This document shows, in pieces, positions 1 to 53,400 of a stretch of 64,000 nucleotides of DNA. A program made the translations under genes and the position numbers. The notes under the pieces were generated by a model. That model had not been told where the DNA came from. It saw only the letters and a program-made list of their open reading frames with translations, and ran no database searches. Position 1 is the stretch's first letter; every line of letters starts with the position of its first letter. Source of the DNA: a phage; NCBI GenBank assembly GCA_024613925.1, contig GCA_024613925.1_4713.1; one strand, written 5' to 3'.

Positions 1-1096
1 GAGCCGCGTTGCTGATTAAAGACTGTGCCCATGCCATGCCGCTGTTCAGCGTAGCGATGGTACCAATCAGACCCAGCACGAAGCTGTTCGGTGTGAACGC
101 ATCCAGCTCCAGCGGGTAAACGCTGGTCATCACGTAACGCGGCTGGTACTGTACAGTCGGCGGTACCGGATAGCCGTTAACCAGAACAGGGCCTTGGTTG
201 AAGGTCGGGTTCTGCGGGCTGTAGGTCAGGTCAATGTAACCGGTGGTGGCGACCAGACGCTGTTGACTATCGTAATCGCTCATCGCTTGACGGATGCGGT
301 TAGAGATAGTTACAGTGATGTCAGAACGCACAGGGTTACCAACAATATCGCTGTCCTGCATACCGCTGGTGTTGTACTGAACGCTGCTGATTGGCTGATC
401 GCTTGCCATCATGCCCAGGTTGAACTGCGGCAGACCCAGTTTATCACCGAGACGGATTTCGATCGCGGTTTGGATTGCGTTATCTGCAGCAGACAGCAGG
501 GTGGTTGCCAGATGCGCAGATTCAGCGGTGATTTCATTGGTCACCACAGCCAGACCAGCGATACGAACAGTACCGTTAGACTTACCGCCAATAGCTGAAT
601 ACATTGCCGCCATGACTTCGTTGATGAACGTACCGTTCAGGTTATCAACCCAGGTACGCGGTACCAGAATGTTACCATGCGGACCTTGTTCTTCACGACG
701 CGGCAGCGGAGCCAGACCAGCAACCAGCGGCAGGACGTAACCGAAGAAGTGGTTATGATCACCAACTTTTGCACCGCTCATAACAACCAGGGTCGGATAC
801 GGTACGCTGTACTGGTTCGGGTCAACCGCAACAAAGATGAAGTCGTCTTTGAACTGGGTATCTTCCAGATATTTCTCCATCAGACGACGGAGATTCAGTA
901 CCTGCTCGGAGCCGGTATTACGGCTGATACGACGGCTCAGTGTACGGTTGATCGTACGCATCGTATGAGTTACTTTAGGACGGTCGGCAAAATCTGCAGC
1001 GGTTTCCAGCGCCTCATCAGCACGTTGTGCGGTGCGGGTTTCAGCTGCACGAATTTCTACATTATCGTTACCGTTATTACGTACGTCTAAGCCCAT
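1..1096 (-). CDS. abundant early protein, 5' part only (gene runs past window start); candidate phage-nucleus shell protein (chimallin) or other major protein
   Basis: Minus-strand ATG at 1094-1096 with GAGGAA RBS; frame open to position 1; N-terminus MGLDVRNNGNDNVEIRAAET; strongly biased codons (CGT/CTG/GGT); early-promoter-like element 70 nt upstream; ten genes from phuZ. Confidence 0.5.
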   Translation of the reverse strand, partial: MGLDVRNNGNDNVEIRAAETRTAQRADEALETAADFADRPKVTHTMRTINRTLSRRISRNTGSEQVLNLRRLMEKYLEDTQFKDDFIFVAVDPNQYSVPYPTLVVMSGAKVGDHNHFFGYVLPLVAGLAPLPRREEQGPHGNILVPRTWVDNLNGTFINEVMAAMYSAIGGKSNGTVRIAGLAVVTNEITAESAHLATTLLSAADNAIQTAIEIRLGDKLGLPQFNLGMMASDQPISSVQYNTSGMQDSDIVGNPVRSDITVTISNRIRQAMSDYDSQQRLVATTGYIDLTYSPQNPTFNQGPVLVNGYPVPPTVQYQPRYVMTSVYPLELDAFTPNSFVLGLIGTIATLNSGMAWAQSLISNAA

Positions 1097-1165
1097 TTGG
1101 GATTCCTCTTTTCTTAAACTTTATTAAATGACGTCATTGAATCAGCTTCTACTCGCTCATTCACC

Positions 1166-1200
1166 TAGGTAATATAACCCTGAAATTTTTTTCAATATTG
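1166..1200 (-). promoter_or_regulatory. early-promoter-like element (sense: TATTGAAAAAAATTTCAGGGTTATATTACCTA), core TATATTAC
   Basis: 35-nt element conserved in three copies (also 30177-30212, 53366-53400), each 70-120 nt upstream of a minus-strand start; core matches the phiKZ early promoter consensus as I recall it. Confidence 0.45.
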
Positions 1201-1350
1201 GTGTAACCACATTGAACGATATAAACCCCTAGGCGAACGCTGCCGAGAAGCAACATTCTTTCTACATATAATCAGGATATGTCTGTAAACTTTTACTTCT
1301 CTTATTGAGAGTAATGTCATATCCGTTTATTACCTTCTTACGGAGTTCGT

Positions 1351-2445
1351 ATGTTTCGTGTTTTAAATAACCTCCCGCGAACATCATCGGGTGTGCAACC
1401 CGTCCCTCAGAAAGACTATCTAATACGCGAAGTTCAAAGAAACCTACAGACAATCCAGAACCACTATCAAGGTTTTACCTTCGCGGTTCAGAGCGATCAC
1501 ATCCTTGCGTTGCTGCTCGCACAGCTCCCTATGAGATACGACATCTCAGTACAAACTTACTACGACATGATTCTCGATCTTACCCCAGAATTGGGTAATC
1601 GTGTCAAGTTGACAACATCAAGATACGCGGGTAAGTTATTCGACGGTGCTTTCTATCCGGGATTGCACGAAGCTATTATCGCAACCGGTGAAAGTCGTCT
1701 TATTTCACGTGACATTCTTGACAACTGGCGTAATTGGTCGCCGGTTAGAATCGTGACGCACCCGTACGCAAATCTTCGTTACATTCCTCTTCACCGAAAG
1801 CCGGTTGAAGAAGGACGAGGTTTTGCGGTCATTATGGTTGATGTACCTTTATTAGCGCTACAGTATCGAATGTGGTCTTTGGTCATGGGTCATAACGTCG
1901 ACGGTAAATGGGTGGTTAAAGAACCGGTTACAAGCTTCCTTGCGAGTTTTCCGTTGGTTAACGCATTATACTCACACAACGATGTTGTTATACGCAATCG
2001 TTGTTTATGGGTATCTCCGGCTAAGAATCCACTCAAATCACCCATTTACGTTAACGACCTTGATAACGTATTCAGCCAAGTCGTTCTGTCCGTACAGCAT
2101 CATTTATTACGCAGAAGACGAAGCTACACCGACATGCTTAAACAGATACCGAGTTTATACGGGGATCAGTACCAAGCAACCCGAATGGGTTACACCGTCG
2201 ATCTTCGACAAACACGATGGGCAAGGGATCTGGGTTGTCTGTCATTATGGCAACAACTCGTCACATTGCAAAACGTATCTGAAAGCGTCGGGTTCAGCAG
2301 TCAAGTCGATAATGACCTGTACCGTGCTGCCGACCGGAGTCTAAAAGAAGGTAACTGGGAATCCTCTCCGTTACCTGGTGATTTAAGACGTGAAGTTATC
2401 GCACAGGTTGCCGACCTCTTAAAAATTCTTCCTGCTGGTGCATAA
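1351..2445 (+). CDS. hypothetical protein (364 aa)
   Basis: ORF with GGAG RBS 5 nt upstream of ATG; followed by hairpin terminator. Confidence 0.55.
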   Translation: MFRVLNNLPRTSSGVQPVPQKDYLIREVQRNLQTIQNHYQGFTFAVQSDHILALLLAQLPMRYDISVQTYYDMILDLTPELGNRVKLTTSRYAGKLFDGAFYPGLHEAIIATGESRLISRDILDNWRNWSPVRIVTHPYANLRYIPLHRKPVEEGRGFAVIMVDVPLLALQYRMWSLVMGHNVDGKWVVKEPVTSFLASFPLVNALYSHNDVVIRNRCLWVSPAKNPLKSPIYVNDLDNVFSQVVLSVQHHLLRRRRSYTDMLKQIPSLYGDQYQATRMGYTVDLRQTRWARDLGCLSLWQQLVTLQNVSESVGFSSQVDNDLYRAADRSLKEGNWESSPLPGDLRREVIAQVADLLKILPAGA

Positions 2446-2450
2446 TCACC

Positions 2451-2508
2451 TCCCTCTTCCCTCGCATCCTCCCAACCCGTAAGGGAAGGGAGGATGGGGT
2501 GGTGGATT
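2451..2508. terminator. GC-rich nested hairpin (core ATCCTCCC-AACCCGTAAGGGAA-GGGAGGAT), bidirectional terminator between convergent genes
   Basis: Perfect 8-bp stem plus inner CCC/GGG pairs and GTAA loop; 36-nt core identical to 63941-63976. Confidence 0.55.
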
Positions 2509-2511
2509 ATG

Positions 2512-4665
2512 TTACTCTGCGGTTTCTCGCTTCGGTAAATAACTTGCTGCGATGTCTTGGGCTAACAATGTATTGTTTTTATTCGAGATGAAAATACCGT
2601 AACTTTCCATTAACGCGTAATACGAACGAACGAGCGTAGAGATCAATCGACGAATATCCATACCTTGAATAAAGATATCAGGAAGCCCGGAGGCTTCGAT
2701 CACCGGTAATGGTATCGTTAAGTTGCTTATCGTTTTCTTATCGTTACGTACAATCCAATCACGGAAACGTTGTTGTAACCCTTTATCCTCCCAGGAATCA
2801 ATCCAATCGTTAAGAAGCGTTTTGTTCTTCGTCGCCAACGGCACACGAACCCCAACATAGGGTGGTTCCTGGCAATGGCCGTACGATTGAGCAAACACCT
2901 CTTCCCACATATCGTAAGACTGTTTCGTTACCGCAACATGTGGTTTCACTTTAACACGTGTTAAGAAATCAGGATCACCACGTTTCATGGACTCAACGAT
3001 TTCGTTTTCTAACGAGATAATATCGTCAAGAACCAATCGAATGCTGATCTTCTCATTACGTAACAGCTTATCCATGATACCGCACATCATGCGTTCAACA
3101 CGTTTGACGATCATTTTTGGTGCTGACGCATCACGCATAACCGGACCTTTCAATTCCAGCTTCGGTGGATTGATAGGAACCCCTTCACGCATGGTCATGT
3201 AACCGTAATAGTTTTTACCCATCGAGGTTAACGACAGAATCAAGAACATATATTCGTTCTTCATTTCCATCACGTACATATGCTCTTTCGCTACACCGAT
3301 ATTACCAGAACACATCGCCATCAGATGAACCGTAATCTGCGTAACCAGATAGATAAGCGTGTTTGCTAAGCGCGTCGAAACTGGATTGATCTCCATATTT
3401 CCAAATCGCCACTGAACCCACTCCTGGCAGGTAAACACCGTCGAGTCGGTATCAGACAACACGCCCACTTCACGGATTGCCGACGGAAAAGCATAAACGC
3501 CAGCCGGTTGGTTCTCGGTACGCCAGAACGCCATAATCAAGTCAGCATAACTTTGGATGCGTTGCAGCATTAATTTTGTTGTTGCTGCGGTAAGACGATA
3601 ACCAAGCTCATTTCCTTTTTCTAGCGCTACGTAAATCGCTTCCCCATTCAAGAACTCCGTGCATTGTGCTGTAATCCAAGCGACCGTGTTGTTATCCATG
3701 GAAGCAATAATGGCTTTAGCCTCTTCCATCGTTTCAACAGGTTCGGATGCCAGCTCACACAACGAGTCAAGAAAATCTCGAACAAATTCAGGATTAAGCT
3801 CACGTAACGAGTACAGGTTATTGCTGTACATGTAGCAGGCGCGTTCCAACGGCGTTAAACCGGTAATTAACTCCCGGATAGTCAGTTCTTTCTCTGGGTC
3901 GAAAGTATACCGATGTAAGCATTTCGATACGTTAGCCCAAACCTCTTCCGGCGTAGGGTAATGCAGTTTGTATTTTACCATTACCTGCTCAATGGCTTTA
4001 CGATCGCTGTTACGGACGATGCTTACGATGTTTTCAATTGCGATATCACAATCGTAATAATGGAAATTGCCCGCAAGGAAGCGTTCGTTGTTCGCATTGG
4101 CTGAACCTGAAGCACAGCGACATGTTGTCGTTAGACTCGGATGCGCAATCGGATTATAAAAAGGGTTGAACTTGGACGCCTGGGTTCCTGACAAACTGTT
4201 GTTGTCTAACTTGGTGTTGGTTTGTCGTTTATCGTGTAGCTCCGCTTCGTCTTTACGTCCGTGTGCTTGCGCTATCGACATTTGTTTCTTTTGTTTCTTA
4301 CGCAACTTACCGTTTTCAACCGCAAAGTCGCTTAGCACACTGGAACGTGTTTCACGTGGATAACAGTTAGCCCACACCGGCGTGATAATTAAATTATTTT
4401 CTTTAATATCGTTGAAGTATTGGCTGAACTTGATGACTTCTTTTTCTCGATTTCCTTCGGTACGCTGCGTTAGTACAAGGCAGTCGGGATCAACCATCCC
4501 GTATTTTCCACCAGGACGAACCGTTTCAAGAACAAACTGCAACGCTTCCTGCTGAGATATCCCACGCATGCGCATTAAGAACAGGGTATAATCCTGTACC
4601 GCTTCTTTGGTCATATCCAACGTACGACCATATCCGTTTTCATCGTAAAAGAACGGATTTTCCAT
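2512..4665 (-). CDS. hypothetical protein (717 aa) with DTDS motif; possible divergent polymerase/nucleotidyltransferase-like
   Basis: Long ORF, GGAGG RBS; motif GVLSDTDSTVF at about residue 405 and KNYYG about 80 aa later; no clear motif A aspartate. Confidence 0.55.
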   Translation of the reverse strand: MENPFFYDENGYGRTLDMTKEAVQDYTLFLMRMRGISQQEALQFVLETVRPGGKYGMVDPDCLVLTQRTEGNREKEVIKFSQYFNDIKENNLIITPVWANCYPRETRSSVLSDFAVENGKLRKKQKKQMSIAQAHGRKDEAELHDKRQTNTKLDNNSLSGTQASKFNPFYNPIAHPSLTTTCRCASGSANANNERFLAGNFHYYDCDIAIENIVSIVRNSDRKAIEQVMVKYKLHYPTPEEVWANVSKCLHRYTFDPEKELTIRELITGLTPLERACYMYSNNLYSLRELNPEFVRDFLDSLCELASEPVETMEEAKAIIASMDNNTVAWITAQCTEFLNGEAIYVALEKGNELGYRLTAATTKLMLQRIQSYADLIMAFWRTENQPAGVYAFPSAIREVGVLSDTDSTVFTCQEWVQWRFGNMEINPVSTRLANTLIYLVTQITVHLMAMCSGNIGVAKEHMYVMEMKNEYMFLILSLTSMGKNYYGYMTMREGVPINPPKLELKGPVMRDASAPKMIVKRVERMMCGIMDKLLRNEKISIRLVLDDIISLENEIVESMKRGDPDFLTRVKVKPHVAVTKQSYDMWEEVFAQSYGHCQEPPYVGVRVPLATKNKTLLNDWIDSWEDKGLQQRFRDWIVRNDKKTISNLTIPLPVIEASGLPDIFIQGMDIRRLISTLVRSYYALMESYGIFISNKNNTLLAQDIAASYLPKRETAE

Positions 4666-4726
4666 AAATCCTCCAAAAGTTATTTAGTCTGTCTACATCA
4701 TCTCGTATATCTGTTAAAAAAGAAGG

Positions 4727-4740
4727 ACGGCATAAAAAAG
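4727..4740 (-). promoter_or_regulatory. TATG-class promoter-like motif (sense CTTTTTTATGCCGT) immediately 3' of a terminator hairpin
   Basis: Motif T(T)TATGCCG recurs five times (4727, 8776, 25338, 31082, 52201), each 20-85 nt upstream of a minus-strand start. Confidence 0.4.
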
Positions 4741-4768
4741 AACCGATCCAGCCGAAGCCAGATCGGTT
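4741..4768 (-). terminator. hairpin (AACCGATC...GATCGGTT) followed by T-tract on minus strand
   Basis: 8-bp perfect stem, then CTTTTTT on the minus strand. Confidence 0.5.
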
Positions 4769-4965
4769 AAAAAAGGATAATAACTGACAGAAAGATATCG
4801 ATGATGTTCGTGAAACAAGATCTTCTCTCGTGCACAATGATGCTAGATCAGAGGGAGGTTGTAACACGAGAGGCGATTCGCCAAAGAAGGAATAAAAAAC
4901 ACGAATCTATCTTATTTCACTGATGGCACTAACCACTCAAAATATATAGTACTGTATGTAAAAGT

Positions 4966-5379
4966 TTACTGATTAATCAAGTCGTTAGCAACAATCTTGG
5001 TGTAACCTGCCTGATTAAGAATTTGATTAATTTTCGTCACGTCGGTCGCATCCTCAATAACGATGCTGGGTTTATAGATCAGCGTCTTGGTAACGACGAT
5101 TGTACTCTCCTTAATCCAAGGAATCCCTAGAATCACATACTCGCCATCAGCTGTGATGACCTCGACGTAATTGTATTTCGTCGGATCGTTCGGTACACTG
5201 GACGGGAGCCGGGAATAAATCTGTTGATGAATAGCGTCTACATCACGGCCGTTGCGCACAGCCGTACGATAGTTGTACACGGCACTAATTTCTACTCCGT
5301 TGAAGTTAACCCCAAGTTCTGGGGCGTACACATCAAAACTCACAACAGAGCCAATCTTTTCTAAATCAGAAGCTGGCAT
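4966..5379 (-). CDS. hypothetical protein (137 aa)
   Basis: ORF in co-directional minus-strand array. Confidence 0.5.
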   Translation of the reverse strand: MPASDLEKIGSVVSFDVYAPELGVNFNGVEISAVYNYRTAVRNGRDVDAIHQQIYSRLPSSVPNDPTKYNYVEVITADGEYVILGIPWIKESTIVVTKTLIYKPSIVIEDATDVTKINQILNQAGYTKIVANDLINQ

Positions 5380-5390
5380 AATAGCATCCT

Positions 5391-5912
5391 TTATTTAAAA
5401 ATGTATTCGTATCCGAAGGTCGTCGCCGACCAGACCCGGATAGATGATAGTGTTCCGCCACGATAAAACGTTTTTGTGAATTCCATATCCTGGGCAACAC
5501 GATAATAAACACGTCCGATAATACGCACGATAAGGTTTCGTGATAACGATCTCTCCTCGCAGTATTCATCGATAAAGTCATCGTCGATATCCGATAAGAC
5601 AACATCTGCAATTTCTTGCAGTAGATTCCTCATCAGCATCTGCCTTCCTTCGGTACCCCACCCAGACAAACAGTAATCGTCTTCTGCCTGACTATAGATG
5701 TCGTTAACCGTCTGTTCGAGCAGTTGCTCAAGATAGTAGTCATCGCGTTTTATAACGTGGCGACGGCGCTCAGTGGCGTATTTTTCCATCCTGTGTTTCT
5801 CTTGTTCGGCGTATGTATTAACGACGCCACAGTCTTTTCTGGATCGTCCCACAATGCACGACGAAAACTGGATACTACCATAACGGTAGGATAGATTTGT
5901 ACAACCTCCCAT
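5391..5912 (-). CDS. hypothetical protein; start uncertain (alternative ATG at 5789)
   Basis: ORF overlaps upstream gene 5750-6238 in another frame; true start is probably internal. Confidence 0.35.
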   Translation of the reverse strand: MGGCTNLSYRYGSIQFSSCIVGRSRKDCGVVNTYAEQEKHRMEKYATERRRHVIKRDDYYLEQLLEQTVNDIYSQAEDDYCLSGWGTEGRQMLMRNLLQEIADVVLSDIDDDFIDEYCEERSLSRNLIVRIIGRVYYRVAQDMEFTKTFYRGGTLSSIRVWSATTFGYEYIFK

Positions 5913-6238
5913 CCGTAACGATGTGCGTTAGTCGTACGTCCGACATTGAACAGACATAACTGATTTAAGAAACAGAGCTGCATCTTCGTAAACAACACCC
6001 TGTCTTCACGTTTAACGTATCCGAGGATATACGCATTCTCGAACGCCTCGCGTGACAAGACGGGTCGATTAAGATACCGTAACGCTAGTACCAACAACGT
6101 TGTTATACGCAACGGATCTTCTGGGTCATTCATGGTGCTCAGCTCTGCTTGTAACCAGTCAGGGATAGTAACCGTCAGGCGATAGGTATCTGTTCCACGA
6201 TCAACCACATTCAATGTTGAAAAAGGCAACATATCCAT
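5750..6238 (-). CDS. hypothetical protein (162 aa)
   Basis: ORF with AAGGA RBS 8 nt upstream of ATG at 6238. Confidence 0.5.
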   Translation of the reverse strand: MDMLPFSTLNVVDRGTDTYRLTVTIPDWLQAELSTMNDPEDPLRITTLLVLALRYLNRPVLSREAFENAYILGYVKREDRVLFTKMQLCFLNQLCLFNVGRTTNAHRYGWEVVQIYPTVMVVSSFRRALWDDPEKTVASLIHTPNKRNTGWKNTPLSAVATL

Positions 6239-9054: not shown

Positions 9055-10035
9055 TTAGAAAAGCAAGAAACCGCTATTCTTCGCTTCTGCTACAGTTTCG
9101 TCACCGACTTTCGGTGCTTGTTGACGTGCGTTACGGTGTTCGATGTAACGTTTCGCTTCGTCCGCGATTTGTTTGATAATACCCCCTAAACGATCAGTAC
9201 TTAAAACAAACGACGTCGCTTCACGAATTGGGCTGCTTTCAGGCACAAAACCATCGCAGCTGTAAATAGCGCTAACGCCCATGACTTTTGTCGCGTCTTT
9301 CGGATAAAGCGTACAGAAAGCAATCGGGCTATCGTTCTCTTTCGTCCAATCGTATCCCATGAACGTATTCAGTTCGGTGATCGTTGGTTCCAAACCGGTA
9401 ACACGTGGATGGTTTAAGAAGTTTTCCAGGTCAGCGCTGTCAAGACGGCGGTTCTCGCCAGAAAACAGAACACAAAGCTGGCTGATAACAACCTGCACGT
9501 CCAGGTTGACATCCTGCTCCGATTTCCCATTTTCGCCATTCATGTGATAGCTAACAATCACTGGACGTTTCAACCCTTCTGCAGCTGCCATCAGTCCTTT
9601 GAAGGTGCGATCGGCGTTGATCGTTTGACGCTCATCATCGAACGAGGCAACGATGCAACACACCACACGTTCACCGCGTTCCAGCAGGTTAGCAACCAAC
9701 GCAGGACCGGCAACAGAACCTGAACCACCGCTCAAACTAAAGACCACGATATTAAATTTACCTGGCGTATGCTTATTGAGAATACCTGGGATTTGTGAAC
9801 AGATCAGTTCAGCGTTCTCGTCACGCTTCTTACCAGAACCGTCTAACTCACGACCGGCTGCATCTTTAAAGATGTAAATATGATCGTCGCCCAGTGTGCT
9901 ATCGCGTAGGTTAGCGCGGCTGGTATCGACATACGTCATGCTGTGTAATCCTTTCGCGACTTCGCCTTCAAATGCCGAGCCGATTTCGCCACCACAACCA
10001 CCGACAGCCCAAATATGTACTTGGTTCTCTTGCAT
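9055..10035 (-). CDS. phuZ: PhuZ-type phage tubulin/FtsZ-like GTPase (326 aa)
   Basis: N-terminal VGGCGGEIG (FtsZ/tubulin T1 loop, GGGGxN-like) and SLSGGSGSVAGP (tubulin signature GGGTGSG-like); size matches PhuZ; AGGAG RBS. Confidence 0.8.
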   Translation of the reverse strand: MQENQVHIWAVGGCGGEIGSAFEGEVAKGLHSMTYVDTSRANLRDSTLGDDHIYIFKDAAGRELDGSGKKRDENAELICSQIPGILNKHTPGKFNIVVFSLSGGSGSVAGPALVANLLERGERVVCCIVASFDDERQTINADRTFKGLMAAAEGLKRPVIVSYHMNGENGKSEQDVNLDVQVVISQLCVLFSGENRRLDSADLENFLNHPRVTGLEPTITELNTFMGYDWTKENDSPIAFCTLYPKDATKVMGVSAIYSCDGFVPESSPIREATSFVLSTDRLGGIIKQIADEAKRYIEHRNARQQAPKVGDETVAEAKNSGFLLF

Positions 10036-15872: not shown

Positions 15873-15898
15873 GAAGGTAATGTAGGTTTATTTTAATC
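15873..15898 (-). promoter_or_regulatory. variant of early-promoter-like element (shares GAAGGTAAT...TTATTTT with 53366-53400)
   Basis: Partial match to the 35-nt early-like element, 30 nt upstream of gene start 15845. Confidence 0.25.
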
Positions 15899-29577: not shown

Positions 29578-30057
29578 TCAGTCTTTCAGCAGCTCAGCCG
29601 CATACGCACTGATGTTGTCGCGAATATGCTTAACCTGAGTTGTCGGGAAAGATTTCTTATACGCGGTGGTCAGGCGTCCGTAAACCTGTTTCTTCTCGTT
29701 AGAGCCGAAACCAACTTCAGCGCTACGTTGAACCGTTGCGGACACAACGTCTTTGCCCAGCGGCAGGGTTACAGAAACAACGTCAACCTGTTTGTTATCC
29801 GCCATGAACTGCGCGCCAACGCGGCCAACCGCCAGACCGTGAGCCAGACCGATATCGGTGGTCAGTTTCTGTGCTTTTTCCAGGATTTCTTTTTCTTCCG
29901 GCGTTACCAGAGTACCCAGGAAATCACTACCTAACTTCTGGCTACCAGATTCGTCCAGTTTAATACCAGCGGCGATTTTATCAGAAAGAGCCTGAACTTC
30001 CGGACGTACGTTAGAAGTGGTTTCAGTCGCTACGGTGGTTTCTACAGCTTCAGACAT
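29578..30057 (-). CDS. small abundant early protein (159 aa), function unknown
   Basis: GGAG RBS; strong codon bias; early-promoter-like element 120 nt upstream. Confidence 0.55.
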   Translation of the reverse strand: MSEAVETTVATETTSNVRPEVQALSDKIAAGIKLDESGSQKLGSDFLGTLVTPEEKEILEKAQKLTTDIGLAHGLAVGRVGAQFMADNKQVDVVSVTLPLGKDVVSATVQRSAEVGFGSNEKKQVYGRLTTAYKKSFPTTQVKHIRDNISAYAAELLKD

Positions 30058-30176: not shown

Positions 30177-30212
30177 TTAGGTAATATAGACCTCAACTTT
30201 TTTCCAATAATG
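30177..30212 (-). promoter_or_regulatory. early-promoter-like element (sense CATTATTGGAAAAAAGTTGAGGTCTATATTACCTAA)
   Basis: Second copy of the 35-nt element; overlaps the last codons of gene 30193-30993. Confidence 0.45.
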
Positions 30213-35466: not shown

Positions 35467-36597
35467 TTATTTAGCGTCGTTAAAGTAAATATCAACAGCT
35501 CGTTCCGTTGCGTAGAGGAGACCAAGATTCACAGTCCCAACCACTTCCGGTGAACCGATGATACGGTTAGCGATACTGGTGCCACTGAAGATAGCATCAA
35601 GGGTGTGCCCGTCTTCGGTTTTGTTCACACCATGACCCACGGAAGAGACAACGGATTTCGCTTGTGCTGCGAAGGTACCTTTATCACCCATCCCCGCACC
35701 AAGGTCGTAACGCATGAAAATACGGATAGCGATCTGGTTCTCGCCTAACGGATTGCCGTCTATTCTCACGTTACTATTGTTGATACGCCCTGTTGCTGCC
35801 TCGTTGAGTTTCAGTTCCTTAACGCGTTTAGCTCGCGCTTTATCCGCTTCACCGACGAGCGCCGCCATGGTTTCACTCATATCCTCAATCTGAGCACGGT
35901 ACAGTACATCGATCTGTACAACTTCACCATGAACGTCAGCACGTGGGTTATACTGACTCATACGACGTAATGCTTCAACGGCTTCCTGACTCTCATCACT
36001 CAGATCGGTTGCAATCGGTTCTTCCAGTGTTGCAAGAATCGTTCGTGGTTCAACGTGATCACCGATTTTCACAAGACCACGAATATTGAGATGGGCGTCA
36101 ACGATGAGCGTACGGCTCTTAATCGATGGTGTTACGAGACGATCGGCAAGATTGTCGAAGATATACGAACTGTCCTCGTGCGTCTCTGGAATATCCAGAA
36201 TACCGACAAGAGACAGCACACCTGCGCGCCAAACAACCTGGCCTGGGTTCCACCAATCGCGTTTGAAATAAAGACGATGGAAAACCACCACATCCTGATC
36301 CTTAACGCGATCCCCGACTTTATAATCGGTAATGAGATCGTGAGGATAATACTTACCTGGCCCTTTCCCGATTATCGTACCGAGCTGGAAAACCTCTTCC
36401 CCTAACTCTGGATCGTCGTATTGTATCGTAAGCGCAGTTTTGGTGACCTTCTTAACAACACCATCGCCTTGGGCGGCGGCCGCGAAGAGTTTACCAACAC
36501 GATGCGCGATAACAGTCTCACCGCCGGTGCGCCACGGTTGTACATCGTAACCCTCAGCGGCAATCATGCGGTTGTGCTGTATACCTATAAATACCAA
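35467..36597 (-). CDS. RNA polymerase beta-like subunit, downstream exon (catalytic double-psi barrel region); true exon probably begins near 36545
   Basis: GMGDKGTFAAQAKSVVSSV (beta GDKxxxRHGNKG region) and DGHTLDAIFSGTSIANRIIG (beta [21 protein letters not shown]-like); N-terminal TGGETVIAHRVGK...GDGVVKKV resembles beta [14 protein letters not shown]...GGVVQYV; no RBS before the apparent TTG/ATG start. Confidence 0.6.
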   Translation of the reverse strand: MVFIGIQHNRMIAAEGYDVQPWRTGGETVIAHRVGKLFAAAAQGDGVVKKVTKTALTIQYDDPELGEEVFQLGTIIGKGPGKYYPHDLITDYKVGDRVKDQDVVVFHRLYFKRDWWNPGQVVWRAGVLSLVGILDIPETHEDSSYIFDNLADRLVTPSIKSRTLIVDAHLNIRGLVKIGDHVEPRTILATLEEPIATDLSDESQEAVEALRRMSQYNPRADVHGEVVQIDVLYRAQIEDMSETMAALVGEADKARAKRVKELKLNEAATGRINNSNVRIDGNPLGENQIAIRIFMRYDLGAGMGDKGTFAAQAKSVVSSVGHGVNKTEDGHTLDAIFSGTSIANRIIGSPEVVGTVNLGLLYATERAVDIYFNDAK

Positions 36598-37090
36598 TCT
36601 CTTGGGCGAATTTAGTTCTTATTCAACATAATCGTACTATTACCAGAATAAGACTGAGATTAGATTGTTCAGATAAGGTCGTTAATCTTATCCCGGAGGC
36701 GACGATAGGCACATCACCTCCCGCTTGCGCTCTCACGCAAGAGCAGACTATATCACATCTCGTTTCAAACGGTGCTTCTTCAGCACCTCAACGAGAGTTC
36801 ACTTCTTCCCAGCGCATCCAGCGCCATTCTCTTATCCAAGGAGAATGCCTCACTCGAGGGGTACAGGGGGATGAATCCCTTAGTCGTTGAACCTTTACCT
36901 TAGAACGCTTCACAGCGATCCTTAGGTACTTGGCTGCGGATTGTCCTTAAGCTATTATCTGTTTTTATAACCATACCGTCTTTCTTTTCAGAATCCGTTT
37001 TGGTCGATAACAGCGATGGATGTCTTCGCAATTCAGTGAATCTCATCTACATGTCGCCACATAGACGGACCCTGCTATTAAAAGCGTTAA
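36545..37090 (-). ncRNA. group I self-splicing intron (no intron ORF); boundaries approximate
   Basis: On minus strand in order: P-like AATTGCGAAG (37024-37033), Q AATCCGCAGCC (36932-36942), R GTTCAACGACTA (36881-36892), S GATATAGTCTG (36744-36754); flanking ORFs together give a contiguous RNAP beta sequence. Confidence 0.6.
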
Positions 37091-40000
37091 TCATCTCTAT
37101 CAGCAGCAGGTACTGCAAGCGCCGACGTACTCATTATTGACGAGCTACCATCCGTTTTCTCGTCGTAAGGTTTCGTTTCACCGTATACAGACACAATGTT
37201 TGCGTTAGGTGCGAGGTAAGCAGAAATACCTACGTCCCCACTATCCTTCGTACCTTCGGATACAACACCAATGTCCGACTTGTCGTATTCACGATCGCGT
37301 GCGCGTCGAAGCGATGTCTTTGAACGACCCCCGATACCGGTCATCGTCGCTTCTTCACCCTGCTTGATATCCAGCATCGGGTTGGTTTCATCGATTACGA
37401 TGGAAGCGCTGTCGTCGAGAATCTGGTTCCAGACGCTTACCGGACTGATTGAGATTTTCTGGCGGTTTCCTTGACTGCTGTTCTCATTCTGACGAATAGC
37501 GCCAACCAGATCCTTATACACCAACTCAGCGAACTTATCGTACGTTTTAAAACGTTGGTAGTTCACATCGTTCGTGTTAGGTGCCCAATCATCCAGAAGC
37601 AGTTCGACGGCACGCAGTAACAACATGGCGAAATCGGTAGGTTCTCCCATGTTCTGCAGCAACGTACGGCTTACCGGATCAACGAAAAGACGCTCCATGA
37701 GTTCAAGTTCGCGTAAATGGCGAACCTTAAGTCCAGCCCCATCGACAACGTTAAAATAGATATCTCGATTGTCAAAAGCGCCGCGAGCGTAACCAATGTA
37801 GTTACGGTATTCGTTAAACCCACCCAGCAACAACGTCGTCATGCGATCGTCTTTACTGAAGATCAGACTTTCGTCGTCAAAGCTCACCGCGAATTCATCG
37901 GGTGCTAACCCCATACGAGAGCCGCGAGGTACCGTACGATAGTTCGCTTTAAGATGTTCTAATAACGGGGTAAGCCCACCCAGATAACTTAGAACAACAC
38001 CGACCGGAATACGTACACCCATGAATTCAAGATCGGCGGCTTCGATCGGCATCTTAGCCGCATTGATACCGAAGAAATCAGGGAACGTCCCTACAGGTGT
38101 TGGTGTTTGTCCTGACTGACAGATATAGAGCTGATTGCGTTTATCGATTGCTAAGAATTCACCCAGCGTGTTACGCGCAAACGTCAGGAGTCCTTCGGCT
38201 AACTGTTCGTTGAACCGATCTTCCCCAATGAACTCCGGCAATGTCTTTGTATCGAGACGTATATCCCAATCAGCAAATTGGATTTGGGTATAGTTGCGTG
38301 CAAGCACAGCGAAGTAATACGGAACTTTGACAGCTGGATCAAAGACGTTACCACGTTTCAACGTGGTTAAGGGTGAGGACTTATCGTAATACATCGCCGT
38401 AAGTTGACGTGTTAGCCAACGACCCGCATTATTAACGACACGCTCTGAACGTTTAACAAACACCTTACCGTAGGCGGTACTCAACGCAACTTCAGATGAC
38501 GATACCTTTCTAATAGGTTTATCAACACGTTGTTTACGCATCCGGTATTTGATGCCGTTAACGACATAAATGCCGTCCTTACGAACCTTCGGCAACATCA
38601 CCGGGAACGTGGTCGGGACACCGCCTACAGGAGCCAGTTTAATCGTGATGACTTGATAATCCCCCATCACGTCAACAACATCTTCAACTTTATATCCCGT
38701 GACAGGGTAACCTGCCTGCTGTACCGCAACGACGGCAGCTGCGATGTCCTTTTGCATTACGTGTTCAACGTAATGTTTATCCCACACCGCAAGCGTCGAT
38801 TTACACAGGCTCTTATCGACGATAACATCCGCTTCCGGCATAACCTTTGCAGGCGCTAATTTTGCGGCTTTTGGTTTAACTTCAACATACTCAGCAAGTG
38901 TTAATCCAGAACCGTCGGGTGCTTCGATTTCATGGATGGCGTCAGCATTACGCATCGCTGCTTTATATTGGACACCGCTTAACTGACCCGCATCCGCCAG
39001 ATCGCTCGCGCGTACCAACACCGCATCCGATAACGACTGAATATATTCGCCATGCGTTTTCGGTAACGTTGCCGCGTCAAAGACATCAACCTTTTCTTCT
39101 TCGGTATCGTCGGTAACGACTTCGAAGAGATCGTCGGTAATGTCCTGATCTTCATCGGGCTGGAAATCTGGTTGTACTTCTACCCCGGGTACTTCACGGA
39201 CATCTTCGAACGAGCGTTCTACAATGGCGTTCCACGCATCGGCATCATCGTCTTCATCCGACCCACCGACCAACTCCGCTTCTAACTCGTCGGGATCAAG
39301 AACGGTAGCGAGATCCTCACCGTTAGGAAGCACGACGTCGCGATCATCATACTCCGCATCCGGGCTGTCCGCAAGAATATCTCGCTCTTGACGAAGAACC
39401 TGTTCCTCTTCTTGTTTCTGTTCTTCTTCATTCGCGCTCTGCGACCACAGACGTGTTACCGCCATCATCCAACGACGTTGGAAGGTTTCAAGTGTCGTTT
39501 TATCGAGTTCTTCCCCTTCCTTCACAAGTCCGGTACGCCATTCTTCCAGCAGGCCGAGATTCAGCGTAAAGAAGTACACACCGTCTGTAAATACGATGTT
39601 AAGCTTATCCAGCGTGGCTCTGTCTAACGAAGCCATCGTGCTGTTCTCACGATCGGTTCCCAACCAGCGGAAGAAGTCAAAGAACGACAGCTCCTCCGGT
39701 GTGGCGAAATTCATGAGGTTATTACGGGTCGGTGCCTGTTGCGTGGTACGCATCAACGAAATCTTCGGCAATGTTGACGGTATACGGAACAACAAAAAGT
39801 GTTGGCGATCGCTTTGCTGTGCGATTTCGTTGGCTTTCGACCAAATTGTTTTACGTACGTTGAACCATTCATCATACCAACGGGTGAGCGTTGGACGATA
39901 AATGTACATGTGGTTAAGATGCGCGTAGTTAGCAACGATCTGAGCGTTGATGTTTTTCTCCACCGTGCTTAGATCGGTAACCAAACGAAAACGACGATGT

Positions 40001-40296
40001 GATGCACGATAATCCAATTTCGCTCGTGGGAGTTGGAATCGTTGATCACGTCGAGGTGCACCCTGTTTGGTTGCGAGATCATCAGCAAACGAAATCCATA
40101 GTTGAGCACTTTCTTTACTCAGCATGTATTCGTTTTCTGGAGGACCTATCAATGAAGGATCCGTTGCGGTGTAATGATAGACAGCATAACGCGGCAGCTG
40201 CAATAGCTGCACTAAACGTAATCTTGGTGATAGTAACTCTTGGTAGCGTCTGACACCAAACTGTCGGTAGTAATCAAGGTATTTAAGTTTTGCCAT
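37087..40296 (-). CDS. RNA polymerase beta-like subunit, upstream exon (N-terminal and middle regions, with acidic N-terminal extension)
   Basis: KDGIYVVNGIKYR (beta DNGTFIINGTERV-like), CQSGQTPTPVG (CPIETPEG-like), PLLEHLKANY (PFLEHDDANR-like), terminal ALAVPAADRDD (RQAVPTLRAD-like); GGAG RBS; start 3 nt after the beta-prime stop. Confidence 0.6.
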   Translation of the reverse strand: MAKLKYLDYYRQFGVRRYQELLSPRLRLVQLLQLPRYAVYHYTATDPSLIGPPENEYMLSKESAQLWISFADDLATKQGAPRRDQRFQLPRAKLDYRASHRRFRLVTDLSTVEKNINAQIVANYAHLNHMYIYRPTLTRWYDEWFNVRKTIWSKANEIAQQSDRQHFLLFRIPSTLPKISLMRTTQQAPTRNNLMNFATPEELSFFDFFRWLGTDRENSTMASLDRATLDKLNIVFTDGVYFFTLNLGLLEEWRTGLVKEGEELDKTTLETFQRRWMMAVTRLWSQSANEEEQKQEEEQVLRQERDILADSPDAEYDDRDVVLPNGEDLATVLDPDELEAELVGGSDEDDDADAWNAIVERSFEDVREVPGVEVQPDFQPDEDQDITDDLFEVVTDDTEEEKVDVFDAATLPKTHGEYIQSLSDAVLVRASDLADAGQLSGVQYKAAMRNADAIHEIEAPDGSGLTLAEYVEVKPKAAKLAPAKVMPEADVIVDKSLCKSTLAVWDKHYVEHVMQKDIAAAVVAVQQAGYPVTGYKVEDVVDVMGDYQVITIKLAPVGGVPTTFPVMLPKVRKDGIYVVNGIKYRMRKQRVDKPIRKVSSSEVALSTAYGKVFVKRSERVVNNAGRWLTRQLTAMYYDKSSPLTTLKRGNVFDPAVKVPYYFAVLARNYTQIQFADWDIRLDTKTLPEFIGEDRFNEQLAEGLLTFARNTLGEFLAIDKRNQLYICQSGQTPTPVGTFPDFFGINAAKMPIEAADLEFMGVRIPVGVVLSYLGGLTPLLEHLKANYRTVPRGSRMGLAPDEFAVSFDDESLIFSKDDRMTTLLLGGFNEYRNYIGYARGAFDNRDIYFNVVDGAGLKVRHLRELELMERLFVDPVSRTLLQNMGEPTDFAMLLLRAVELLLDDWAPNTNDVNYQRFKTYDKFAELVYKDLVGAIRQNENSSQGNRQKISISPVSVWNQILDDSASIVIDETNPMLDIKQGEEATMTGIGGRSKTSLRRARDREYDKSDIGVVSEGTKDSGDVGISAYLAPNANIVSVYGETKPYDEKTDGSSSIMSTSALAVPAADRDD

Positions 40297-40299
40297 GGG

Positions 40300-41946
40300 T
40301 TAGGCTCCACGAGGTCCCGTTAAGTTGCGTAATAGGAACGCAACCGTATCGTAACCAATATCAATGTTGAATTTATTTTTACCACTTACCCAGAAAGCTC
40401 GCTTCTTGTGCGAGTTGGTAATTTCGTCAATAGCTTCCATGGAATAAAGAACGTTAACCGAGACCGTATCACCGTCGAAGTCCGCCCCGAGGCCAGCTAG
40501 AAACACCTGGCCGACTTGGGTCGTTTCTACAAATGACGCTTTCAATGACCAATCTGGGTATTCCCATGCCATATACCGATCGCCTTCTAACGGTTGCCAA
40601 TCGACACCGAGTTCTCTTCTTGGCTTCGTGTTAACTGTCGTCCGCACATAGCAGGTTAACGGTATAACTGATTGCATTCCCGATACTGGATAACGTGTCA
40701 CCATCGCACCGAGTTTATTCCAAAGATGATAACCGCTCAGATAAACCAATTCGCAGTATGTAACCGGATGAACATTAGCGCCAGGTTTGTTCAGCATCTC
40801 TGGGGGTATTTCACTCATGCCACGGAATAACCGAAACGAATCGTTGTTCACATAGACGAGGCAAAGATAACGCCCATTAACCATGATAGGTTCGTTACGC
40901 ACACCAGGATCGCTTAGCGTGTTCAGTAAACGTTCGATACCGTCCCACGTTGTAAAGTCATCGATGGTATCTGGGTCTAACGTGACGCGTTCACGTTCCA
41001 TCGTTTCGGTATCGATAAGCTCAGCTTCAGTAACATCACGAACAAATATTTCCTGCAAAATCCCCGTACGTAATGCGTGCTGTGTGATAGGAAGAGCAGC
41101 CTTGCTCATCTGATATAGACCAAGTTGTACTGATGTACACGAAGTCTGGTTCGGTGAGCCGAGAACCTCTGTAGTTGGGATGACAGCCGAAATAACGTTA
41201 CGGGTTGAGTTCCAAACGCGACGTGAACCGAACTTCCCTTGGAAGATCCCTTTCTTACCTTGGAACATATCCAACAACAAAGCGTAGATATCGTTGAATG
41301 TTCTCTGTAAGCTCCAGCGCTGGCCGTCGTAAACGGGATCGGAATAATCTTTTAATCCATCAGGGACGGTGTTAGAAATTGCAAGGAAACGACGATACAA
41401 CTCCGTGATTTCTTGCTCGCTTTCATACCCGCCTTCTTTTACTTCTATTTCACGTAAGCCTGCAGGTAATACCAGTAAGTGACGGGTCATCGCTTTGAAC
41501 ATGTTCTCTTCGACAACTTTAATTCGTAGCTCTCGTTGAGCTGAACCCGTTGAAACGAACTTGATATCCGCGACGTGTTGTGCAAAGAACCCGTATCCTG
41601 TTTGTCCTGTTAACGCATCAGACGCAACGAAGTCGCGTTGTTCAGGATCCCAACGAGCATACGCCTTTCCCGACATGATATCACCATAGAGGTGTTTTAG
41701 TCGAATGAGGCGGTCGTAAATGACAGGGTGCAGGATTTCAACCTTGCATTCAATCACCGCAAATCGACGGTCTCGATCTTCACTACCTGCACTACCAAAG
41801 ATGGTGTAAGAATAGAAACCATCATCGTGGAAATTACCGGTGCTTGGGTCACGAATGCTCATGCTCGTGATCTTGGGGAGAAAACGTAACTGCTGTTTAT
41901 CGAGGTGTAAAATACTAATGTTAAACGGCTCTCTGACTTTAGCCAT
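40300..41946 (-). CDS. RNA polymerase beta-prime-like subunit, N-terminal catalytic part (548 aa from ATG 41946)
   Basis: GADFDGDTVSVNVLYSMEA matches the universal beta-prime NADFDGDQMAVHVPLTLEA; GKFGSRRVWNSTRNVIS resembles GKRVDYSGRSVIT; AGAGGAG RBS before ATG 41946. Confidence 0.7.
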   Translation of the reverse strand: MAKVREPFNISILHLDKQQLRFLPKITSMSIRDPSTGNFHDDGFYSYTIFGSAGSEDRDRRFAVIECKVEILHPVIYDRLIRLKHLYGDIMSGKAYARWDPEQRDFVASDALTGQTGYGFFAQHVADIKFVSTGSAQRELRIKVVEENMFKAMTRHLLVLPAGLREIEVKEGGYESEQEITELYRRFLAISNTVPDGLKDYSDPVYDGQRWSLQRTFNDIYALLLDMFQGKKGIFQGKFGSRRVWNSTRNVISAVIPTTEVLGSPNQTSCTSVQLGLYQMSKAALPITQHALRTGILQEIFVRDVTEAELIDTETMERERVTLDPDTIDDFTTWDGIERLLNTLSDPGVRNEPIMVNGRYLCLVYVNNDSFRLFRGMSEIPPEMLNKPGANVHPVTYCELVYLSGYHLWNKLGAMVTRYPVSGMQSVIPLTCYVRTTVNTKPRRELGVDWQPLEGDRYMAWEYPDWSLKASFVETTQVGQVFLAGLGADFDGDTVSVNVLYSMEAIDEITNSHKKRAFWVSGKNKFNIDIGYDTVAFLLRNLTGPRGA

Positions 41947-53365: not shown

Positions 53366-53400
53366 GAAGGTAATATAGTCCTGTTATTTTTTTCAATACG
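53366..53400 (-). promoter_or_regulatory. early-promoter-like element (sense CGTATTGAAAAAAATAACAGGACTATATTACCTTC)
   Basis: Third copy of the 35-nt element with TATATTACC core. Confidence 0.45.

Follow-up and report, generated by a model that had tools for sequence, protein, structure and literature searches.

It is highly probable that the window (the whole 64,000-nt stretch of phage DNA analyzed here) began with the 5′ part of chmA, the chimallin gene of a Goslar-like jumbo phage, and that this gene is transcribed early by the virion RNA polymerase (RNAP), with codons selected for high translation. Chimallin self-assembles into the square lattice that forms the phage nucleus. Transcription of chmA would begin soon after injection, by phage RNAP packaged in the virion, at a putative promoter composed of an A-tract and a TATATTAC core; the predicted start at G 1162 would give a 66-nt leader with a strong Shine-Dalgarno sequence. 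The E. coli-optimal codon usage would reflect selection for very high translation, because the whole shell must be built fast from one protein. The features of the window are collected in the table.

Features at the chmA locus and related features of the window (positions in the window; strand left empty where not applicable)
Feature	Position	Strand	Remarks
chmA (chimallin, major phage-nucleus shell protein)	1–1096	minus	codons read 1096–2; translation and homology
Predicted 66-nt chmA 5′ leader	1097–1162	minus	predicted +1 G at 1162, begins GAAT
Invariant stretch upstream of chmA	1097–1314		218 nt, 100% identical in five Goslar-like genomes
Perfect 12-nt palindrome AATGACGTCATT in chmA leader	1127–1138		−42 to −31 from ATG; +25 to +36 from predicted TSS
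Early (virion RNAP type) promoter-like element of chmA	1163–1196	minus	core TATATTAC at 1176–1169
Parts of the chmA promoter-like element: upstream part ATTGAAAAAAATTTCAGGGT; spacer CTAGGT	1196–1177; 1168–1163	minus	before predicted +1
phuZ (phage tubulin)	9055–10035	minus	PDB 9PM9, E 4e-220; Goslar annotation 'tubulin PhuZ'
Weaker promoter-family member (TACATTAC CTTCCT G)	15877–15884	minus	intergenic; 31 bits in Goslar
Second copy of chmA promoter sub-type (ATTGGAAAAAAGTTGAGGTCTATATTAC)	30181–30208	minus	123 nt upstream of 160-aa ORF 29578–30057
Third copy of chmA promoter sub-type (ATTGAAAAAAATAACAGGACTATATTAC)	53370–53397	minus	91 nt upstream of 171-aa ORF starting 53278

The chmA ORF was read from an ATG at 1096–1094 and left the window at its start, so that only the N-terminal 58% of the protein (365 of 631 codons) lay inside: the N-terminal tail plus NTS, the N-terminal alpha/beta domain, and the first portion of the GNAT-like C-terminal domain (domain borders taken from PMC9365700). 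The first-pass annotation had described a cut-off gene here within the interval 1–1203, which indeed took in the chmA fragment together with its leader and the promoter motif, whose upper edge was at about 1196. It had also proposed recovering the full ORF beyond the window start; the public contig L003, 100% identical to window 1–2493, supplied this complete 631-aa ORF, and the C-terminal assembly segments were known here solely from this identical external contig.

The 365-aa fragment matched (i) the experimentally studied, shell-forming Goslar chimallin 7SQT (E 4e-238; 358 of 365 residues identical, 98%), (ii) Pfam PF25677 Chimallin_Phikzvirus (39.4 bits; cut-off 27), and (iii) PHROG 4795 'nuclear shell protein' (E 6e-19). 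The full-length ORF scored 1400 bits against 7SQT (residues 1–631 aligned to 7SQT 4–634) and 98.3 bits against PF25677; it was identical to Goslar ChmA (7SQT/7SQU/7SQV) at 615 of 631 residues, with seven substitutions in the window part (window to Goslar: D38G, R39Q, Q81R, S167A, V177A, V326A, and S338T). The orthologous Goslar gene (HOV27_gp246) was annotated 'nuclear shell protein' in RefSeq. Chimallin had been guessed in the first-pass annotation from context alone, with a lack of similarity to nucleus shell proteins named as the outcome that would speak against it; the guess was borne out by 7SQT, PF25677, PHROG 4795, and the Goslar annotation. chmA can thus be taken as an already known gene, a near-identical allele of a gene that is annotated in RefSeq and whose protein structure is solved.

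The Goslar chimallin protomer has two domains, one N-terminal (alpha/beta) and one C-terminal (GNAT-like), and carries one N-terminal and two C-terminal segments (PMC9365700). These segments dock on adjacent protomers, so that tetramers form and then a flexible shell, one layer thick, round replicating phage DNA (PMC9365700). Goslar ChmA forms a lattice in situ and cubic assemblies in vitro (PMC9365700); in infected cells it surrounds the phage DNA, and virions lack it (PMC9365700, PMC11077065). The full ORF on L003 fitted the chimallin architecture (~600–700 aa; N-segment, N-domain, GNAT-like C-domain, and two C-terminal docking segments). Phage phiKZ gp54 (PHIKZ054), PhiPA3 gp53, and 201phi2-1 gp105 belonged to the same PF25677 family as window chmA, but these chimallins came from phages of other host genera and had just 19–24% amino acid identity to it; the PDB entries 8FNE, 7SQQ, and 8IGG were matched at E 1e-8 to 3e-5 by the fragment and at 2e-22 to 2e-11 by the full-length protein. 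Chimallin homologues were present in 111 phage records, and a single-protein chimallin scan returned only three Goslar-like viral contigs.

The window comes from a Goslar-like jumbo phage of E. coli that belongs to the nucleus-forming Chimalliviridae. The window and phage Goslar shared about 96–98% DNA identity (97.6% over window 1–6000), and different RNAP genes carried a group I intron in the two genomes. The nucleus-forming core set and the chmA–RNAP neighbourhood were present: PhuZ, a divergent family B DNA polymerase (divDNApol PF20286, 682 bits), and RNAP beta-type subunits annotated in the Goslar region collinear with the window. The phuZ product was further matched to phiKZ gp039 PhuZ (3ZBP; E 8e-29) and 201phi2-1 PhuZ (E 7e-15), and its Pfam Tubulin score (29.9 bits) was slightly below the cut-off of 33. 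The first-pass annotation had rightly placed phuZ nearby but had miscounted the distance as ten genes: 11 genes separated phuZ from chmA according to the Goslar RefSeq annotation, making phuZ the 12th gene away. In Goslar, as in the window, chmA was flanked by a divergent 364-aa gene on one side and an RNAP beta-type subunit gene on the other. The order divergent ~360-aa gene, chmA, and RNAP beta-type subunit gene was kept in most loci examined (the distant ones picked individually from the phage collection); the window's order also occurred in RAY, Eowyn, RTH11, and two SNUABM phages, and likewise in Noxifer and RSL2, which had a small extra ORF.

The extreme codon bias reported at first pass was confirmed: the chmA fragment had a codon adaptation index (CAI; weights from the Sharp & Li E. 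coli table) of 0.617, compared with a mean of 0.292 (sd 0.092) for the window, the second highest CAI among the 55 window ORFs, with an Nc of 34.5 and preferred codons CTG (27 of 31 Leu), CGT (20 of 22 Arg), and CCG (17 of 21 Pro). The most codon-biased ORF in the window was the 160-aa ORF behind the second promoter copy, and Pfam and PDB searches with it gave no match. In Goslar, chmA ranked fifth in CAI among 229 genes; the four genes above it were (i) three virion or putative virion genes, namely those of major head protein gp041 (CAI 0.74), gp058, and gp023, and (ii) gp214, a 159-aa early-promoter gene with no known function. Because virion genes dominate above chmA in this ranking, strong codon bias by itself cannot tell a shell protein from a capsid protein. 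HK97-fold major capsid proteins are likewise very abundant and strongly codon-optimised. ChmA is reported to be highly abundant in PhiPA3 infections (PMC11077065).

The codon bias could accordingly be read as that of a late major capsid protein gene, or of a gene for another abundant virion protein, as the ranking of gp041, gp058, and gp023 might suggest. This reading is next to impossible, however, for a fragment that passed the chimallin Pfam model and was 98% identical to a chimallin whose solved structure is non-HK97; PDB, Pfam, and PHROG searches with the fragment returned chimallins only and no capsid-protein match, HK97-fold major capsid proteins had no sequence relationship to chmA, and the Goslar major head protein gp041 was encoded by a separate gene elsewhere in the genome (Goslar 43439–45661), outside the window. 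The first-pass preference for a shell protein over the major capsid protein was therefore upheld. The early-type motif nearest the Goslar capsid gene (Goslar 43259) lay downstream of that gene and preceded gp040.

A recent host acquisition, or a compositional island, was also considered as the origin of the E. coli-like codons, given that G+C was 53% in the first kilobase and about 46% across most of the window. It is extremely improbable: chmA belonged to the core genes of the phage family, its homologues occurring in the 111 phage records and its gene order being conserved, the shift consisted of synonymous codon choice toward the E. coli optimal set, and gp041, gp058, and gp023 showed the same kind of codon shift. 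Selection for high translation remains the preferred reading of the bias. Context reasoning of the kind used at first pass, which combined an early-type promoter with extreme codon bias in the phuZ neighbourhood, can identify a shell gene without homology tools.

The early-like element that the first-pass annotation had placed 70 nt upstream of the gene was present, but its bare 8-mer TATATTAC ended 72 nt from the chmA ATG and was not above chance in the window (4 matches against 2.1 expected; 17 of 100 shuffles reached 4). Significance lay in the extended motif, ATTGRAAAAA-N(5-12)-TATATTAC, found three times in the window against 0 expected. In Goslar, a ~40-nt motif with TATATTAC as its core occurred 13 times, always on the minus strand and 31–211 nt upstream of minus-strand ATGs; 12 of these sites lay between RefSeq genes and one inside an annotated 62-aa ORF (gp047). 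These sites scored 31–52 bits with a position weight matrix trained on the very sites scored, against a maximum of 16.7 bits in shuffles. Four of the Goslar sites fell within the window, the weaker one tabulated being upstream of a minus-strand ORF homologous to Goslar gp225. Two upstream sub-types were distinguished: TTTCACGRC at most sites, and ATTGAAAAAAA-N4-AGG at chmA, gp214, and gp200. The seventh base past the core, the predicted start, was G at all 13 sites, and 10 of 11 phages had a TATATTAC-like core followed by G in front of chmA.

The same arrangement was found in the phiKZ group. The phiKZ PHIKZ054 element, TGAAAAAAATTTGAGATTTATATTAC-TAAATT-G, was nearly identical to TGAAAAAAATTTCAGGGTTATATTAC-CTAGGT-G of the window; both lay 66 nt before the ATG and opened a leader with GAAT, and for PHIKZ054 a primary TSS with the early-promoter motif is reported (PMC8244752). 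The upstream elements of phiKZ, PhiPA3, and 201phi2-1 shared the architecture of the window's element (A-tract, TATATTAC, 6 nt, and G). Virion-RNAP early promoters of phiKZ-like phages have a conserved ~10-nt AT-rich element near −10 and blocks near −20/−30 (PMC7598289, PMC5312081, PMC11512511, PMC8244752), the phiKZ consensus used here being compiled from secondary accounts and the phiKZ sequence; the putative Goslar-type promoters shared these elements, as well as many copies per genome and strong strand bias, with a G start predicted 6 nt past the core. Of the two Goslar-type sub-types, ATTGAAAAAAA-N4-AGG resembled phiKZ.

A chance AT-rich match, or a −10-like box for the host sigma-70 polymerase, with chmA transcribed in some other way, would agree with the lack of enrichment of the bare 8-mer in the window and with the location of one of its four matches inside a gene. 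Such an origin is very improbable in view of the three extended motifs, the one-strand placement of the 13 Goslar sites upstream of genes with scores well apart from the shuffles, and the mapped early start at the near-identical element of the phiKZ chimallin gene. No sigma-70-like −35/−10 pair was found upstream of chmA, and phiKZ-type phages transcribe without the host polymerase according to reviews (PMC13282480, PMC7598289). From the upstream promoter-like family together with the phiKZ match we infer early transcription of chmA, and the 'early' label given at first pass gained support from both. A full-text literature search with TATATTAC returned unrelated papers only. Between E. coli and Pseudomonas phages with chimallins of only ~20% identity, the putative chimallin promoter is conserved at nearly every base, and the Goslar-type set of promoter-like sites predicts an early regulon.

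The start at 1162, which corresponds to Goslar 172964, was predicted because phiKZ-type and AR9 early promoters follow a core-(6N)-G rule (PMC5312081). The Shine-Dalgarno sequence AAGAGGAA lay at 1110–1103, its GAGG 8 nt before the ATG. The five Goslar-like genomes differed from the window by 1.0–3.6% over 1–2596, yet the 218 nt directly upstream of chmA were invariant; this stretch consisted of the leader, the promoter-like element, and ~118 nt further upstream, and in Goslar itself it was identical to the window in all parts, the leader palindrome included.

The palindrome AATGACGTCATT in the chmA leader had P = 0.010 in shuffles of the window leader, and a perfect leader palindrome (combined p 3e-10) was present in 8 of the 11 chimalliviruses compared, whose chimallins were only ~20% identical; the survey covered 11 chmA loci and the capsid gene of one genome. 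These palindromes were 12–16 nt long, that of the window lying about 30–45 nt before the start codon; their sequence varied while the two-fold symmetry was kept. That of phiKZ was at about the same place as the window's, and the core was TTGATCAA in the phiKZ/PhiPA3/201phi2-1 group versus TGACGTCA in the window. Goslar also had similar palindromes, equally far from the ATG, in front of gp058 and the major head gene gp041.

Two simple roles were rejected for AATGACGTCATT: (i) a simple RNA hairpin, since the RNA would form merely a 4-bp hairpin of weak base pairs and the centres were always self-complementary, which hairpin selection alone does not demand, and (ii) a sequence-specific operator. 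A second copy of AATGACGTCATT was present in Goslar at 142859–142870, but the 88 palindromes of at least 12 nt in that genome gave an expectation of ~1 identical pair by chance; this chance level, and the finding that three top-expressed genes were each preceded by a different palindrome, make a single sequence-specific binder unlikely.

By analogy with what is reported for phiKZ, a second, non-virion polymerase would likely contribute to chmA transcription later. A stronger version, in which the TATATTAC promoter supplies only an initial burst and the bulk of the chimallin mRNA derives from a middle start of the non-virion polymerase in the leader, possibly at or near 1127–1138, is a genuine possibility that falls short of an expectation. 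It is consistent with a secondary TSS with a middle-promoter motif at PHIKZ054 (PMC8244752), with transcription of PHIKZ054 in many transcription units (PMC10914365), and with typical phiKZ leaders of 31–40 nt (PMC8244752), which would put a second start near the palindrome; the equally spaced palindromes before gp041 and gp058 and the invariance of the 118 nt upstream of the promoter-like element point the same way. On the other hand, the phiKZ TACT motif was absent from the chmA leader, and Goslar-type phages have no known middle-promoter consensus. Such dual control complements early transcription by the virion RNAP and does not exclude it.

The presence of a leader palindrome in the chmA genes of divergent nucleus-forming phages may be a new observation. 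It is tentatively proposed, though rather unlikely, that the palindrome is a structure-dependent element, not described before, for expression of the most highly expressed genes; as candidate roles, it may be (i) part of the start site of the non-virion polymerase, (ii) a 5′ hairpin stabilising a shorter transcript, or (iii) a signal that governs how mRNA is handled at the nuclear shell. If functional, the palindrome would offer a handle on the very high expression of shell and capsid proteins.

The gene at the start of the window encoded an already known allele of chimallin (ChmA, the phage-nucleus shell protein), which makes the finding itself ordinary. As the first-pass annotation had noted, this gene was cut off: its minus-strand frame comprised 365 open codons and ran to the window edge, so the interval proposed there as chimallin (1-1203) held the N-terminal 58% of chmA plus its leader and the upstream element. 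The 365-aa fragment (i) matched Goslar chimallin (PDB 7SQT/7SQU/7SQV; E 4e-238, 358/365 positions identical) and, more weakly, the chimallins of PhiPA3, 201phi2-1, and one third entry; (ii) passed the Pfam Chimallin_Phikzvirus cut-off (39.4 bits against 27); and (iii) matched PHROG 4795, 'nuclear shell protein'. These matches supported the earlier interpretation, the underlying observation being confirmed. The ortholog in the close relative Escherichia phage vB_EcoM_Goslar (Goslar) was gp246, labelled nuclear shell protein in RefSeq and named ChmA (PMC11077065).

Positions of the features in and around chmA and in the remainder of the window
Feature	Position	Strand	Remark
chmA start codon	1096..1094	minus	window begins inside gene
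perfect palindrome AATGACGTCATT	1127-1138		inside chmA leader
early promoter-like element TATATTAC	1169-1176	minus	72 nt upstream of chmA ATG
divergent family B DNA polymerase of nucleus-forming phages	2512..4665	minus	
phuZ	9055..10035	minus	PDB and phage PhuZ matches
group I intron	36724-37091	minus	Rfam, 56 bits; inside large RNA polymerase beta-type gene

An exact-sequence search with the neighbouring 364-aa protein yielded two long public contigs. Logan contig SRR13871261_89, an assembly of a public sequencing run, was 100% identical to window 1-2493 and carried a complete 631-aa chmA ORF, which aligned with 7SQT over its whole length (1400 bits) and scored 98 bits on the Pfam chimallin model. 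Similar but non-identical copies of the window start were present in SRR14535146 and two IMG/VR contigs; identical and related copies together thus put at least five Goslar-like genomes in public data, and chmA was found in five of them (Goslar, two contigs from viral metagenomes, and two assemblies from read archives). Goslar was the only Goslar-like genome in the phage collection searched, and the closest cultured relatives outside the Goslar-like group showed <31% identity.

Window 1-6000 and Goslar shared 97.6% DNA identity, and the whole window was collinear with Goslar 171805-237260 (~95-97% identity) except for two intron-sized differences, the two phages being unlike in group I intron content: (i) the window intron, dividing the RNA polymerase beta-type gene into ORFs 37087..40296 and 35467..36597, was absent from the corresponding Goslar site and (ii) a ~2.1-kb Goslar segment (211754-213837; another group I intron plus gp206) was missing from the window at 40480-40519. 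The order divergent ~360-aa gene, chmA, and RNA polymerase beta-type subunit gene recurred in RAY, Eowyn, RTH11, and two SNUABM phages, and was kept with one small additional ORF in Noxifer and RSL2. The reported proximity of phuZ (tubulin/FtsZ-family chain 9PM9, E 4e-220; phiKZ PhuZ, 8e-29; 201phi2-1 PhuZ, 7e-15) held; eleven annotated genes separated it from chimallin, and the stated distance of ten genes was close, not exact.

The extreme codon bias first noticed was borne out: the codon adaptation index (CAI, with Sharp & Li E. coli weights) of the fragment was 0.617 (Nc 34.5), where the window averaged 0.292 (sd 0.092), and ranked 2/55 among window ORFs. Across Goslar, chimallin ranked 5/229; the four genes ahead of it were gp041 (major head protein), gp058, gp023 (a 'virion structural protein' by annotation), and the 159-aa gp214. 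Such bias by itself would not show whether a protein forms a shell or a capsid; the separating argument, raised in the first-pass annotation, is the early-type promoter, and only chimallin and gp214 had an early-type element among these five Goslar genes.

Only two parts, the family of promoter-like sites and the palindrome in the leader, might reward further work. The early-like element placed ~70 nt upstream of the gene was indeed present there. The bare 8-mer TATATTAC was not enriched in the window (4 observed versus 2.1 expected); three of the four matches shared the longer motif ATTGRAAAAA-N-TATATTAC, of which none was expected by chance, and a fourth, weaker site of the family carried TACATTAC. 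Goslar contained 13 sites (consensus tAaT.cAaaa.aTTTCAcG.C-TAtATTAC-cTa.gTGA), all on the minus strand with minus-strand start codons 31-211 nt downstream and all with G as the seventh base past the core; 12 lay between RefSeq genes and one within the 62-aa annotated ORF gp047. A weight matrix from these sites gave 31-52 bits at the sites and at most 16.7 in 20 shuffled genomes, a margin inflated by training on the same sites as were scored, although these were originally located by a degenerate 8-mer, not by the matrix. Published early promoters for the virion polymerase of such phages share an AT-rich, highly conserved stretch around -10 and additional conserved blocks around -20 and -30; transcription starts 6 nt past the core, and the promoters are numerous and biased to one strand (PMC7598289; PMC5312081; PMC11512511). 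Judged by sequence, the Goslar-type motif fits this signature.

For chmA itself, the early-promoter assignment is well supported at the sequence level: (i) likeness to the phiKZ chimallin gene PHIKZ054, whose upstream region reads TGAAAAAAATTTGAGATT-TATATTAC-TAAATT-G against TGAAAAAAATTTCAGGGT-TATATTAC-CTAGGT-G in the window, both with 66 nt from G to ATG and a leader starting GAAT; (ii) a TATATTAC-like core with G at the seventh base, 51-144 nt before chmA, in 10 of 11 divergent nucleus-forming phages examined; (iii) invariance of window 1097-1314 (218 nt upstream of the ATG) across the five Goslar-like genomes, which diverged from the window by 1.0-3.6% over 1-2596; and (iv) no sigma-70-type promoter detected upstream of chmA. 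The ~118 nt farther upstream than the motif may contain an additional control region or a promoter serving the divergent gene (1351). Two starts of PHIKZ054 have been mapped, a primary one carrying the early-promoter motif and a secondary one carrying the middle motif (PMC8244752). The injected virion polymerase would initiate at ~1162, giving a leader of 66 nt whose strong ribosome-binding site (AAGAGGAA, 8 nt before the start codon) would, together with host-optimal codons, permit fast, massive chimallin synthesis; a later, phiKZ-like start by the non-virion polymerase is possible by analogy. In the 98%-identical Goslar protein, the protomer is built of two domains, N-terminal alpha/beta and C-terminal GNAT-like, with one segment at the N-terminal and two at the C-terminal end; the segments dock onto neighbours, producing tetramers and a flexible square lattice around phage DNA (PMC9365700).

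In PhiPA3 (NC_028999.1), an in-frame ATG preceded the annotated start of chmA by 75 nt with no stop between. Its ribosome-binding context (TCGTAAAGGAAAAAGACATG) was phiKZ-like, and initiation there would give a ~69-nt leader from a TATATCAC-N6-G element, as in phiKZ and the window; the RefSeq start of PhiPA3 chmA may thus be set too far downstream.

The palindrome comparison covered window 1127-1138 and the regions upstream of chmA at phage loci L010-L013 and L017-L022. A perfect 12-16 nt palindrome lay at -55 to -15 from the chmA start codon in 8/11 phages, with varying cores (TTGATCAA, TTAGCTAA, TCGCGA, CTCGAG, and TTGCAA) and retained symmetry (combined shuffle tests, p 3e-10); such a palindrome occurred in 2.8% of 70-nt windows of chmA coding sequences (binomial p 6e-11), and in the eight control regions preceding the divergent neighbour gene none exceeded 6 nt. 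Similar Goslar palindromes also lay at -35 of the major head gene (45685-45696) and -41 of gp058 (65117-65132), so that with chimallin 3/5 of the most codon-biased Goslar genes carried one versus 10/219 others (p 0.014); the remaining Goslar early leaders had none. Simple selection for a hairpin does not predict a constantly self-complementary centre, and as RNA the window palindrome formed four weak pairs only. No mention of a leader palindrome was found in the phiKZ dRNA-seq paper, and a prior description elsewhere in the literature is possible. A second exact AATGACGTCATT lay intergenically at Goslar 142859-142870, ~60 nt upstream of another early promoter-like site; one identical pair among the 88 long Goslar palindromes is roughly the chance expectation.

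A 160-aa ORF (29578-30057, minus strand) homologous to gp214, which ranked fourth in Goslar, had a CAI of 0.658, above every other ORF in the window. The ORF had no Pfam or PDB match, its sole match being PHROG 9746 ('unknown function'). At 30181-30208 (minus strand) it was preceded by an early promoter-like motif of the A-tract sub-type also present at chimallin, and this gp214 homologue may be an early protein made in very large amounts.
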